Shown: positions 16,497 to 54,267 of the stretch, piece after piece
Layout: every line of letters begins with the position of its first letter
How positions within the stretch are numbered: position 1 is the first letter of the stretch
Assembly (NCBI GenBank): GCA_965225085.1
Contig: CBDDBE010000006.1
Span: forward strand, 35,697 to 99,696
Source: an uncultured Candidatus Saccharibacteria bacterium
Lineage (GTDB): Bacteria; Patescibacteriota; Saccharimonadia; Saccharimonadales; EFPC-124
Direction: 5' to 3'
DNA length: 64,000 nt
Notes under the pieces: generated by a model
The model's database searches: none
The model's input: the letters and a program-made list of their open reading frames with translations, nothing else
What the model was told of the DNA's origin: nothing
Made by a program: the position numbers and the translations under genes

Positions 16497-16510
16497 GCTT
16501 ATGCTAAAGT
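16497..16510 (+). promoter_or_regulatory. GCTTATGCTA motif fused to a -10-like TAAAGT
   Basis: GCTTATGCTAAAGT lies 25 nt upstream of ATG 16535. It is one of four exact copies of the 10-mer in the window (see findings). Confidence 0.4.
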
Positions 16511-16534
16511 TAAATCAGTAAGAGATATACAACT

Positions 16535-16960
16535 ATGTCGCGTTTACCTGTTCCCGGCTCAGATAATGGTACTTGGGGGAGCGTCCTCAATGATTTTTTG
16601 AGTGTGGAGCATAATGCAGATGGGACACTTAAGGCGTCAGGTTCACTGGCTGCCAAGGCCGATGACTCTTCTGTCGTGCATCTTGCTGGTGTAGAAACAG
16701 TTGCAGGCACAAAGACTTTTCAATCTTCGCCGGTTGCCCCTGGCCCTACCCTGGGCAGCCATGTGGCCACAAAGACATATGTAGACGGTGCCATTCCTGA
16801 TATAAGCTCAAAAGTCAGCAAAGCTGGCGATACAAATGACTGGTACGCTGAACGTACCAGGTGGGGTGGTGGTTCCTTCGGATTGGATCAACGTAAAAGC
16901 GCATGGCGCTATTGGCAATGGTACCACGGACGACACGGCTGCAATTCAGGCGTCAATTAA
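16535..16960 (+). CDS. N-terminal fragment of tail-fibre-like surface protein (frame lost after codon ~100)
   Basis: MSRLPVPGSDNGTWGSVLNDFLSVEHNADGTLK... up to ...SKAGDT is tail-fibre-like. After 16834 the frame reads nonsense-like sequence, while the +1 frame continues the motif. Confidence 0.6.
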   Translation: MSRLPVPGSDNGTWGSVLNDFLSVEHNADGTLKASGSLAAKADDSSVVHLAGVETVAGTKTFQSSPVAPGPTLGSHVATKTYVDGAIPDISSKVSKAGDTNDWYAERTRWGGGSFGLDQRKSAWRYWQWYHGRHGCNSGVN

Positions 16961-18926
16961 CGCCCTGCCTTCGGGTGGGGGAGTTGTCTATCTGCCCAGT
17001 GGTACGTACAAGATAACATCAGCGCTCACAATAGTTTCTGATATATTTTTGCGAGGCGCGGGCGCAAACGCGACTATTATCAAGCAGACATCGACGACAG
17101 CCCATGGTATTTACGCCCTGACGGCGCGGCGTATGAGCTTCGAAGATTTGCAGATTCTCGGTCCGGGCAAAGGCGTTGGCAGCGGCACAGGTATTTATCT
17201 CGATACAAGTGGTTCGGCGGTTGCCCAATGCCAATTCAATAATGTGTTTATCCAACAGTTTGGCGTTGATGGCATGTACATCAACACACCCATTGCAACT
17301 GTGTTGAGTAACGTGCGTTCGCAAAACCACGGGCAGCATGGTTTTAATTTTTTTAACGGTACGTCGCTGCAACTAAACGCCTGCTATGCGGCCGGGGTGG
17401 CTGCTGCTGGCTTTTATTTTGACACCATGACGTACTGCGCCCTGAACGGTTGTGCGTCCGACTCTAATGGTGCTGGCTACTGGGCGCACGCGGGTGGCAA
17501 CATTGCCTTTATCGGTTGTGGCTGTGAGGCCCCTATGAATAACGGCGCTACTTATGCCGGCTACAGCTATGTCGCGCATGGCGGTACGCAGATGGCATTT
17601 TATGATTGCTACTCGACAGGGAATCTGTCAATTGCATACTGGTTTACGAATGGCACGACACTGGGCCTTGCGCAGACTTGCCGTGAGGTTAGCCCTACTG
17701 GTACCGCAACTGCCTCGATCAAGGTAGATTCTGGTTGCACCGCAACCGTTATGAATGCTTCGACCACTACGACAGTCAGTTACGCCACGGGTACAACGAA
17801 CCTGTTCGAGAAAAACGGTGTCCAAACATTCGGTACCGGAACTACCAGTATCCGTGTAAGCCGCGGCGCAAATACTAACTTTGGTAGCGTCATCCTTGCG
17901 ACTGCTGCAGTTGATCAGTGGGGAGTGCAAATGATTAGCAACTCCACTGATGATATGCATTTTAAGGATGTTCTGAACGGTCACGACATGCTTATCGGCG
18001 AGCAACACGTCGCGCAGCCCAACATTCAACTTTTAGCCGACGCGAAATCTTTTGGTGGCGGGATTGGCGTGGTGGGTATCGGAAATGCGACCACTATACC
18101 GAGCACGAATCCGACTGGCGGGGTGATTTTTTATTCGGAAAGCGGTGTACTTAAATGGCGCGACCCAAGTGGCAATGTTTACGCGTTGAACGTTGCGACT
18201 CCCGGCGGTGCAATCACTGCCACGAGTGTCACTGCCACCACAAGCGACTTAAATTTGGTGAGTAATGGCGCCAATAAGGTCATTGCTAAGCCCGGAACGG
18301 ATAGCGTTACTGCGTTTGAAGTGACTAACGCGGCAGCCAGTTCGGTAATCCTTGATGTTGACACTTCCAACAAGCGCGTCGGCATCAACAACACTGCGCC
18401 AACCACTGACCTGGAAGTTGGTTCGAGTGCCGGTGGCACTGCCGGCATGAAGGTGACGCGCGGCAGCTCCGCGAGCTTTGCAAGTTTTAGCTTGAATAAC
18501 GCCGGTACTGACCAATGGGGTATCCAGATGCGCAACGACGCAACGAACGATTTACACGTTCGAGACCTTGCCAACGGTCGTGACCATCTGAAATTTGCAC
18601 TCACCACCGGAGTCTCAACGCTCGGTCTTGGCGTGGCTTTTGGCCGCACGACTGTTGCTGACGCCAATTACACAGTTTTACTGACGGATCGAAGAATTTG
18701 TTATACCTCAATCAGCGCCGCACGGGTAGTGACATTACCATCTGTGGCCACGACCACGGGTCAGAGCTTTATCATCAAGGATGAATCGGGTAACTGCAGC
18801 GGCTCGAACACCATTACGATTACGCCTGCGTCGGGCACGATAGACGGAGCCGCAAACAAGGTCGTCAACACGGCGTATGGCGTGCAGCGAATATACTCAA
18901 ACGGTACGAATTGGTTTACGGAGTAA
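16836..18926 (+). CDS. tail-fibre / pectate-lyase-fold (right-handed beta-helix) surface protein, main ORF
   Basis: 696 aa. Begins MTGTLNVPGG. Then INVKAHGAIGNGTTDDTAAIQASINALPSGGGVVYLPSGTYKI, the typical N-terminus of pectate-lyase-3-type beta-helix depolymerases. It also has an internal duplicated ~55-aa module and a C-terminal knob-like motif VVTLPSVATTTGQSFIIKDESGN...ITITPASGTIDG...NGTNWF, which is common at the ends of phage tail fibres. Confidence 0.85.
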   Translation: MTGTLNVPGGVVVPSDWINVKAHGAIGNGTTDDTAAIQASINALPSGGGVVYLPSGTYKITSALTIVSDIFLRGAGANATIIKQTSTTAHGIYALTARRMSFEDLQILGPGKGVGSGTGIYLDTSGSAVAQCQFNNVFIQQFGVDGMYINTPIATVLSNVRSQNHGQHGFNFFNGTSLQLNACYAAGVAAAGFYFDTMTYCALNGCASDSNGAGYWAHAGGNIAFIGCGCEAPMNNGATYAGYSYVAHGGTQMAFYDCYSTGNLSIAYWFTNGTTLGLAQTCREVSPTGTATASIKVDSGCTATVMNASTTTTVSYATGTTNLFEKNGVQTFGTGTTSIRVSRGANTNFGSVILATAAVDQWGVQMISNSTDDMHFKDVLNGHDMLIGEQHVAQPNIQLLADAKSFGGGIGVVGIGNATTIPSTNPTGGVIFYSESGVLKWRDPSGNVYALNVATPGGAITATSVTATTSDLNLVSNGANKVIAKPGTDSVTAFEVTNAAASSVILDVDTSNKRVGINNTAPTTDLEVGSSAGGTAGMKVTRGSSASFASFSLNNAGTDQWGIQMRNDATNDLHVRDLANGRDHLKFALTTGVSTLGLGVAFGRTTVADANYTVLLTDRRICYTSISAARVVTLPSVATTTGQSFIIKDESGNCSGSNTITITPASGTIDGAANKVVNTAYGVQRIYSNGTNWFTE

Positions 18927-18933
18927 CATTCCG

Positions 18934-18962
18934 TTGACCACCGCTAGCGCTTATGCTACAGT
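18934..18962 (+). promoter_or_regulatory. sigma-70-type promoter containing the GCTTATGCTA motif
   Basis: TTGACC (18934..18939), a 17-nt spacer, then TACAGT (18957..18962), with TGC forming an extended -10. Confidence 0.55.
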
Positions 18963-18971
18963 GATCTTAAA

Positions 18972-53350: not shown

Positions 53351-53369
53351 GCTCGCTCGTAGCCACGCA

Positions 53370-53404
53370 AAAGTAGCCTTGCCACCAGCAGGGCTACTTT
53401 TATT
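53370..53404 (+). terminator. rho-independent terminator after pilin
   Basis: AAAGTAGCC / GGCTACTTT stem running into a T-rich tract. Confidence 0.75.
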
Positions 53405-53432
53405 ATGGACAGTTAGCTGGTAGCATAAGTGC

Positions 53433-54242
53433 ATGATGTTTGTGGTTGTGCTTTGTTTGGTGTTGCTGGGGCTAATGCTCGGCAGCTTTGTGGGGGCTAT
53501 GACGTGGCGCCTGCACGTGGGTAAGGATTTTGTGAACGACCGTTCCGAGTGCGAGCACTGCCACCACAAACTGTCTGCCTTGGACCTTGTGCCATTGCTT
53601 AGCTGGTTGACGCTGCGAGGTAAATGCAGGTACTGTGGCAAGCCGATAGGGTGGACGGCTCCGGCATTGGAGCTGGCAATGGCTTCTCTGTTCGTGACTT
53701 CGTATTATATGTGGCCGCTCTCGCTCGATACATGGCAGTCGCAGACCTCGTTCGTGCTGTGGCTGGTCTACCTGGTGGGGCTAGTAGCGCTGTTGGTGTA
53801 CGACCTACGCTGGATGCTCCTGCCAAATGTTATTATTTTCCCGCTAATAGGGGTTGCGATAGCAGAATCGATGGTCCGGTATCAGATCCAGGTTGGCCTA
53901 AGCCCGATGGACTACCTGCAGTCAGTTGTGTTCGGCGTCGCGACAATTGCCGGGCTGTATTGGGTGCTATATACCGTTAGCCGCGGCAGGTGGGTCGGCT
54001 ATGGCGATGTAAAGCTGGGGATATTTATGGGTATTGCACTCGGGTTTCAGCGGTCGCTTCTGGCGCTTTTCTTGGCGAATATTATAGGGTTTGTGATTGT
54101 TCTACCTGGGTTGCTGTCGGGTAAGCTCAAGCGTACCAGCCGGGTGCCGTTCGGGCCGTTTCTGATTGTGGCGTTTATGATATCGTTCTTGTTCGGAGAT
54201 CGGATTATTGCCTGGTATTTGCATTTTATTTTCCTGCAATAA
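53433..54242 (+). CDS. pilD: prepilin peptidase / N-methyltransferase PilD
   Basis: 269 aa. N-terminal Cys pairs CEHCHHKL...CRYCGKPI, catalytic Asp contexts GYGDVKL and the C-terminal GPFL. TAGCAT ends 6 nt before the ATG. Confidence 0.92.
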   Translation: MMFVVVLCLVLLGLMLGSFVGAMTWRLHVGKDFVNDRSECEHCHHKLSALDLVPLLSWLTLRGKCRYCGKPIGWTAPALELAMASLFVTSYYMWPLSLDTWQSQTSFVLWLVYLVGLVALLVYDLRWMLLPNVIIFPLIGVAIAESMVRYQIQVGLSPMDYLQSVVFGVATIAGLYWVLYTVSRGRWVGYGDVKLGIFMGIALGFQRSLLALFLANIIGFVIVLPGLLSGKLKRTSRVPFGPFLIVAFMISFLFGDRIIAWYLHFIFLQ

Positions 54243-54253
54243 CAACACTCAAC

Positions 54254-54267
54254 GCTTATGCTATAAT
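54254..54267 (+). promoter_or_regulatory. minor-pilin operon promoter containing the GCTTATGCTA motif
   Basis: GCTTATGCTATAAT, with TATAAT at 54262..54267 ending 8 nt before ATG 54276 (leaderless-type). Confidence 0.5.

Follow-up and report, generated by a model that had tools for sequence, protein, structure and literature searches.

A GCTTATG(C) promoter word shared by type IV pilus and fiber-like surface genes of Saccharibacteria

The window, as we call the whole 64,000-nucleotide (nt) stretch analyzed here (contig CBDDBE010000006.1 of an uncultured Candidatus Saccharibacteria bacterium), carries a type IV pilus gene cluster, a gene for a fiber-like surface protein, and a gene for a DHH-family protein (Table 1). 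The subject of this analysis, the 10-mer GCTTATGCTA, has four exact copies in the window, starting at 16497, 18949, 45544, and 54254, all on the plus strand, and every copy continues into a -10-like hexamer (TAAAGT, TACAGT, TATAAT, and TATAAT, respectively). A preliminary description of the window had placed these fused copies upstream of the fiber-like gene, the DHH-like/Pro-rich protein gene, pilM-pilC, and the minor-pilin operon, with a TTGACC 17 nt upstream at the DHH site; our positions, spacing, and gene content agree with it apart from two corrections to gene models given below. In 100 dinucleotide-preserving shuffles of the window the 10-mer occurred 0.16 times on average, and none reached four copies. 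Allowing one mismatch adds the reverse-orientation copy in front of pilD and three intragenic copies. When the four sites are aligned, identity is confined to the 10-mer and the hexamer; with no similarity beyond these, the sites are not copies of a repeat element.

Table 1. Genes, predicted promoters, and word copies. Positions are those of the window unless a comparison locus (L) is named.
Feature	Position	Strand	Details
Possible fifth forward-class site, GCTTGTGC-TTTAAT	286..299	-	10 nt before ATG of a membrane-anchored protein cut by the window edge
Predicted forward-class promoter, GCTTATGC-TAAAGT	16497..16510	+	Hexamer 16505-16510; 24 nt before fiber-like gene
Fiber-like surface protein, BppL_N + pectate-lyase beta-helix	16535..18926	+	Phage-tail-fiber-like N-terminus MSRLPVPGSDNGTWG, GDTMTG motif
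Predicted forward-class promoter with -35 (DHH gene)	18934..18962	+	TTGACC (18934-18939), 17-nt spacer ending GCTTATGC, TACAGT (18957-18962)
Distantly NrnA-like DHH protein	18999..20942	+	Pro-rich C-terminus
Reverse element just downstream of -10, TATAGT-atat-GCATAAGCA	30553..30571	+	Minus-strand GCTTATGC at 30563-30570; before ftsK (30631), seen in window
Weak motif relative, aCTTGTGG-TATGTT	36578..36591	+	Before efp
Predicted forward-class promoter, GCTTATGC-TATAAT	45544..45557	+	Hexamer 45552-45557; 10 nt before pilM ATG
Operon pilM-pilN-pilO-(80 aa)-pilB-pilT-pilC	45568..52514	+	Synteny in 80 loci
Predicted major pilin promoter	52799..52833	+	TTGCCA, 16-nt spacer, TATAAT (52799-52826), then directly CATAAGC (52827-52833)
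Major pilin gene	52874..53350	+	N-terminal methylation motif
Reverse-orientation element TAGCATAAGT	53421..53430	+	2 nt before pilD ATG (53433)
Predicted forward-class promoter, GCTTATGC-TATAAT	54254..54267	+	Hexamer 54262-54267; 8 nt before first minor-pilin gene (54276)
Minor-pilin operon, four genes	54276..57389	+	Prepilin-type N-termini
Fiber-like homologue, GCTTATGCTAAAAT	L091 9953		78% identity; between dnaB and ybaB/recR
Hyaluronidase-domain protein, GCTTATGCTATAAT	L092 2922		Same N-terminus as fiber-like protein; neighbor of next entry
Fiber-like homologue, GCTTATGCTAAAAT	L092 5661		46% identity
CBM_5_12 protein, GCTTATGGTATGAT	L094 11336		Same N-terminus as fiber-like protein
Fiber-like homologue, GCTTGTGCTAAAAT	L098 9978		41% identity

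Conservation was assessed in a set of PilC relatives, one genome per species and all Saccharibacteria (TM7, Patescibacteria), comprising 80 loci (1.31 Mb) with PilC identities to the window between 51% and 86%; the gene order of the pilus cluster is kept across them. Ten metagenome loci with DHH-gene orthologues (L081-L090; about five distinct lineages, 61-83% protein identity to the window) and the loci surrounding homologues of the fiber-like protein in other genomes (L091 onward) were also included, and the sampled sequence totals ~1.6 Mb. The conservation reported here covers 80 species; a PilM homologue search for distant lineages (oral TM7 and other classes of the Candidate Phyla Radiation, CPR) gave, among the matches listed, identities that were all at least 63%.

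The preliminary description had suggested comparing orthologous promoters in relatives, and the motif turned out to be nearly universal at the pilM and minor-pilin promoters of the 80 species, with the consensus 14-mer GCTT(A/G)TGnTATA(A/C)T. With up to two mismatches allowed, the 14-mer GCTTATGCTATAAT has 132 matches in the 80 loci plus the window, 126 of them on the plus strand, on which pilC and most of the cluster are oriented. Of these matches, 50 stand before pilM and at least 52 before the first minor-pilin gene, most often at 6-12 nt from the ATG, a distance that implies leaderless mRNAs. Counted by orthologue, the 7-mer GCTTATG lies 0-3 nt from a TAnnnT hexamer at 56 of 62 pilM genes, most of the remainder being miscalled open reading frame (ORF) starts, and by the same measure at least 44 of 60 minor-pilin operons carry the word, most of the rest again having miscalled starts. 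When only usable upstream regions are considered, the forward word is present in 48/61 for pilM and 40/52 for the minor-pilin operon.

The word is retained as PilC identity drops to 51%, and the minor-pilin products are mostly just 21-50% identical to the window protein. Pairwise identity at these promoters is 0.91 within the 14-mer vs. 0.28-0.30 (random level) in the flanks, and information content is limited to positions -20 to -7. The -10 hexamers at forward sites (TATAAT, TATACT, or TAAAAT) are the same as at ordinary promoters. Minor-pilin promoters have no conserved -35, and that of the window has no recognizable one. From the short distances to their start codons in the window, we infer that the pilM mRNA is leaderless or nearly so and that the minor-pilin operon mRNA is leaderless. 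Spacing is not entirely fixed: in 10 pilM promoters GCTTATG is fused directly to TATAAT (GCTTATGTATAAT, 0-nt spacing), which shifts the TG by one base. In L019, the motif precedes genes for TPR-like and large surface proteins.

Several features of pilM promoters were noted alongside. In ~15 loci (L031, L035, L041, L043, L045, L048-L050, L052, L056, L062, L064, L065, L068, L071), the motif lies 97-129 nt before pilM; several of these have an ATG at leaderless distance after the motif, which may open a short ORF ahead of pilM. Many pilM promoters (e.g., L038, L047, L051, L059, L066, L070, L072, L078) have, by eye, a conserved TTGnnn 19 nt from the hexamer with an A-rich tract before it, an unusually long spacer for sigma-70. 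This arrangement recalls MerR-type promoters, which have a 19-20 bp spacer and a dyad operator, but there is no clear dyad here and the minor-pilin promoters are without any -35.

The DHH promoter is likewise kept in L081-L090, where TTGACC is followed by a 17-nt spacer ending in GCTTATG(C/A) and by TACAGT while the surrounding sequence has diverged. Orthologue starts place the beginning of the DHH gene at ATG 18999, not at the TTG at 18972 assumed in the preliminary description, and its predicted mRNA has a leader. The 8 nt that follow the -10 of this promoter (18963-18970 in the window) are conserved, reading GAGCTTAA in L081-L090 and GATCTTAA in the window, so that another GCTTA-like word falls on the predicted start site.

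In these relatives, rpsT and the DHH gene are direct neighbors in divergent orientation, whereas the window has the 2.4-kb fiber-like gene between the two. The fiber-like gene is therefore an insertion in the window, with a motif copy of its own. The sequence next to rpsT (ctggtacgcacgg) is similar to what lies upstream of the DHH promoter in the relatives. The tail-fiber-like gene of the preliminary description is a single gene broken by a 1-nt frameshift near 16830, in an A-run (16820-16840). The two frames read ...SKAGDT/N DWY and MTGTLNVPGG, and dropping one A restores GDTMTG; the frameshift may reflect a sequencing error, a pseudogene, or a phase-variable tract.

Fiber-like genes with the motif were found in four genomic contexts besides the window, unrelated to each other. 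Nothing else in the fiber-gene loci carries it, rplJL and rpmG neighborhoods included. Its occurrence in unrelated contexts, only before fiber-like genes, indicates that the motif travels with the gene family and not with the location. A protein 70% identical to the enzymatic part of the fiber-like protein is also encoded on a Streptomyces sp. contig (L097 6001-7809; GC 65%), in a prophage-like region with Prim-Pol, HNH, Endonuclease_7, and HTH genes nearby, and this copy has no motif. The match suggests that Saccharibacteria have exchanged sequence with actinobacterial phages or hosts, and that an actinobacterial cell wall is the target.

The specificity of the word was examined against other promoters in the sampled sequence. 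Among 1303 intergenic -10-like hexamers, the similarity of the upstream 8-mer to GCTTATGC is bimodal: 113 have at most two mismatches, and the rest peak at six mismatches, as random sequence does. G at -14 is present in just 30% of non-motif promoters. The two most intergenic-enriched 7-mers in the set are CTTATGC and GCTTATG, at 10- to 14-fold. The preliminary description had not found the 10-mer at the housekeeping promoters it could identify, and we can extend this: the motif is absent from the window promoters of rpsT, rpsF-ssb, ychF, uppP, ndk, and others; the neighborhoods of rplJL, rpmG, rpsT, rpsF-ssb, pgk, and tpi lack it in the sampled loci; and the forward word is almost never upstream of xerD, ndk, and ppiC family members. 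The motif is thus not a generic promoter feature within the ~1.6 Mb sampled. Two further sites in the window are doubtful members of the forward class: that at 286..299 is uncertain, its hexamer being without A at position 2, and the one before efp may be a plain extended -10 of the TRTG type described below.

Taken with its conservation at pilM, minor-pilin, DHH, and fiber-like genes, this absence from ordinary promoters strongly supports the earlier proposal that the pilus and the fiber-like gene share a regulator or promoter class. We are highly confident that the word is a genuine promoter element under strong selection, one that is specific to a set of cell-surface genes and kept throughout the class.

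Other kinds of element were considered and rejected. A DNA uptake sequence (DUS/USS), expected at ~1 per kb including coding DNA, is ruled out by a coding density near the estimate for uniform base composition (177 copies of the 7-mer in 1.26 Mb of coding DNA vs. ~150 estimated; nine copies in the window vs. ~8). A dispersed repeat or mobile element is ruled out by identity limited to the 10-mer and hexamer and by random-level flanks across loci. Alternative sigma factors (sigma-54, extracytoplasmic function, FliA-type) do not fit hexamers that are the same as those of ordinary promoters, with no GG-N10-GC. Exact copies of the 14-mer in viral contigs were uninformative, being 120 unrelated single matches (generic phage promoters or coding sequence), none before a fiber-like or pilin gene. 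With Rfam, a tRNA was the only hit over the window, and none of the motif sites is a known RNA element. Literature searches on this motif, on Saccharibacteria promoters and sigma factors, and on leaderless promoters in Patescibacteria yielded no description of the motif, and a search by the 8-mer alone returned primer noise only.

The anatomy of the forward word overlaps with a recognized promoter signal. All four window sites have TG at -15/-14, one base before the hexamer, and across forward-class sites G-14 is found in 100%, T-15 in 97%, and T-17 in 98%. At -16, 88% have A and 11% have G, and position -13 varies freely, with C in 80%. Because the fifth position of the word is A or G and the eighth is free, the segment from T-18 to n-13 reads T-T-R-T-G-n, that is, as a TRTG or "-16 region" extended -10, an established promoter element (bioRxiv 10.1101/2025.01.23.634641; PMC6212719). 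The preliminary description had considered the conserved GCTTA unexplained by sigma-70 rules; this stands for G-20 and C-19, which match no known contact, but not for T-18, T-17, and A-16, which together with TG make up the TRTG element. The likeness to extended -10 promoters, such as those of Gram-positive sigma-A and the galP1-type TGn of E. coli, lies in the TG one base before a TATAAT-like hexamer, T-17, a purine (A or G) at -16, a free -13, and activity predicted without a recognizable -35. Unlike them, our word has nearly invariant G-20, C-19, and T-18, extending past the described sigma contacts, is confined to one functional gene set and not a general promoter property, and is also found reversed inside other promoters of the set.

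One explanation, then, is that the 14-mer is an unusually long extended -10 defining a polymerase-intrinsic promoter class, with no dedicated regulator. It could be read by the housekeeping sigma, by a second sigma of group-2-like type, or through contact of beta-prime with the -20..-18 spacer, and the outcome would be strong, -35-independent, constitutive expression of abundant surface structures. This is supported by the constant register of word and -10 across pilM, minor-pilin, DHH, and fiber genes, by variation that follows TRTGn, by minor-pilin promoters without a -35, and by -10 sequences (TATAAT or TATACT) that are perfect sigma-70-type hexamers. C at -13, moreover, recalls sigma-S-type selectivity. 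On the other hand, the TRTGn extended -10 is also preceded here by triplets other than GCT, which stands at 94 of the 202 intergenic TRTGn-hexamer sites; the next triplet, TTT, accounts for 17. Nor does it readily accommodate the 0-nt variant in 10 pilM promoters or the weak palindromic flank: the upstream flank reads A-W-A-A-Y in forward and non-forward copies alike, giving an imperfect palindrome CATAA-yGC-TTATG in which the partner arm CAWAA is weak.

The reverse-orientation copies also bear on this question. CATAAGC, which directly follows the -10 of the window's major pilin promoter, is the reverse complement of GCTTATG, and among 72 usable upstream regions of pilin orthologues 43 contain CA[TC]AAGC (50 of 73 contain ATAAGC). 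The -10 and the reverse word are 0 nt apart in 16 loci and 5-6 nt apart in 19, and in several loci the word lies inside the spacer instead. Similar reverse elements precede pilD in other loci, and in some loci reverse copies precede a TPR gene heading a large-protein operon. The preliminary description had listed the copies at the pilD start and at 30563-30570 as opposite-strand occurrences, the latter upstream of its "orphan D"; both are present, but not as promoters of the other strand, being instead the word reversed inside the pilD and ftsK promoters. As opposite-strand promoters, reverse copies were rejected on the grounds that the hexamer that would follow them is without the required T/A positions. 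Reverse copies at variable positions in the pilin, pilD, and ftsK promoters, with no usable -10 on the opposite strand, are difficult to reconcile with an intrinsic polymerase signal, and we regard such a signal as the main alternative, possible but rather unlikely as a full account of the word.

Some observations concern the surroundings of these reverse copies. Unlike the leaderless-type genes, the pilin gene has a long leader, with a strong ribosome-binding site of the AAGGGGG type. A very basic 47-aa ORF (MPRRWKGEWFQSGRSGAHKSRHGKGRGRSSRGNRSQATPPKRQKPRK; window 52582-52725) lies between pilC and the pilin promoter, preceded by a Shine-Dalgarno sequence and followed by a hairpin and T-run, and its position is conserved in the three closest relatives (L001, L002, L016). 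In L032, L033, L040, L041, L048, L059, L072, and L074, a DnaA-box-like TG(T/G)GGATAA follows the stop codon of pilC at 0-13 nt, ahead of the pilin -35; it has only 35 occurrences in 1.38 Mb and is absent from this place in the window. Ahead of an xerC/D-like recombinase gene (window 58902-58919, minus strand), the sequence TATACT-ATAAGCA-ct-ATG (plus strand GTGCTTATAGTATAT) places a reverse-type half word between the -10 and a leaderless start, and the reverse word is found in 2 of ~49 usable upstream regions of orthologues of this gene.

We lean, slightly and no further, towards a composite reading in which the word is the operator of a putative DNA-binding regulator and forward copies additionally supply the TRTG extended -10. 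GCTTATG(C) would then be a lineage-wide cis-regulatory word in the core promoters of a Saccharibacteria cell-surface regulon comprising the type IV pilus machinery, minor pilins, major pilin, pilD, and fiber-like surface enzymes, along with the DHH protein in this clade. In the forward class, the word abuts the -10, mostly with a 1-nt gap and with a 0-nt gap in a subclade, and its 3' part (T-A/G-T-G-n) would double as a TRTG-type extended -10, allowing transcription to start without a -35 and usually to give a leaderless mRNA. The pilin promoter would rely on its own -35, with the operator reversed and anywhere within the polymerase footprint, an arrangement that would suit steric repression.

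A sequence-specific DNA-binding regulator is suggested by the invariant G-20/C-19 combined with reverse copies in the pilin, pilD, and ftsK promoters, and the 0- and 1-nt spacing variants with the weak palindromic partner point to a separate factor. As all copies lie within the footprint (approximately -24 to +8), we infer that the simplest mode would be a repressor holding the whole apparatus under one signal. Several points weigh against this composite reading. The near-fixed registry between word and -10 in at least six gene families is what direct polymerase or sigma recognition would be expected to produce. The conserved part, asymmetric and 7-9 bp in length, is short for a typical dimeric factor, with a palindromic partner that is weak. 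No candidate regulator was found: the window encodes a single transcription factor, a MarR (28094-28528) that shows no link to the motif, and the 80-aa, 163-aa, 728-aa, and TPR proteins of the pilus cluster are without DNA-binding domain matches. Three distant members of the fiber N-terminal family (L094 10001, L095, L096) have degenerate versions of the motif only, and all of the sampled sequence is near pilus, DHH, or fiber genes.

Known systems share some of these properties. Operators in core promoters, such as LexA, Fur, and CodY-type boxes, are also short words in the polymerase footprint of many related promoters, found in both orientations and at variable positions and kept across species while the flanks drift. 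Unlike those boxes, the conserved part here is asymmetric with a weak second half-site, forward copies are in near-fixed registry, and no cognate protein is known. The MarA/SoxS/Rob marbox is also an asymmetric word with an orientation that correlates with position relative to the core promoter. However, its sequence is unrelated, marboxes lie upstream of or overlap the -35 rather than abutting the -10 or lying at the start site, and no AraC-family gene was seen here. Control of pilins by sigma-54/PilR or SigF in Proteobacteria and cyanobacteria likewise involves a dedicated pilus-gene promoter signature, but our promoters have no GG-N10-GC (-24/-12) and have a canonical sigma-70 hexamer.

The putative regulator could instead be an activator, a monomeric factor that sits beside the -10 and replaces the missing -35 contact, and is reversed at promoters that have a -35. 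For MarA/SoxS-type activators, orientation depends on position. Orientation is indeed fixed per family (forward for pilM, minor-pilin, and fiber genes; reverse for pilin), and most forward-class promoters have no -35, in contrast to the good one at the pilin promoter. Yet the sites at pilin genes lie anywhere from the spacer to about +7, and activation from such variable positions, some of them downstream, would be unusual; the forward site also overlaps the TG that sigma itself should contact. We consider activation improbable. That the four window copies arose by chance or from a repeat (a mobile element or duplicated promoter cassette) and have no regulatory meaning might be entertained for the copies at 16497 and 18949, one of which may derive from the other given the insertion of the fiber-like gene between rpsT and the DHH gene, but the comparative data already refute it, with no extended similarity among the sites, a word conserved in 80 species against random flanks, and copy numbers the shuffles never reached.

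Saccharibacteria live as obligate epibionts and have very small genomes; to our knowledge almost nothing is known of gene regulation in them. The genes sharing the word are probably used for contact with other cells; in published work, type IV pili of Saccharibacteria have been linked to association with host bacteria. We suggest, tentatively, that GCTTATG(C) either serves as recognition word for a master regulator that controls a host-contact regulon throughout the class or is a new core-promoter element at -20..-18 read by RNA polymerase, the latter if it is polymerase that reads G-20/C-19. In either case, it would coordinate pili, minor pilins, and phage-tail-fiber-like wall-degrading enzymes, would be the first cis-regulatory code described for Patescibacteria (CPR), and would make an attachment or attack regulon predictable from sequence in thousands of uncultured genomes. 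As a sequence-only means of listing co-regulated host-interaction genes in such genomes, the 14-nt signature nominates the fiber-like pectate-lyase, hyaluronidase, and CBM proteins as pilus partners. The motif also provides a defined bait for the putative regulator and, for the emerging genetic systems of these bacteria, a compact native promoter without a -35 and with predicted leaderless mRNAs.

Starts of the leaderless type are not limited to genes with the word. Many window genes, e.g., those at 39109(-), 40017(-), 57975(-), 58961(+), and 10959(+), have a TATAAT-like hexamer 6-12 nt before the start and no Shine-Dalgarno sequence, and for this reason leaderless mRNAs appear to be common in this genome.

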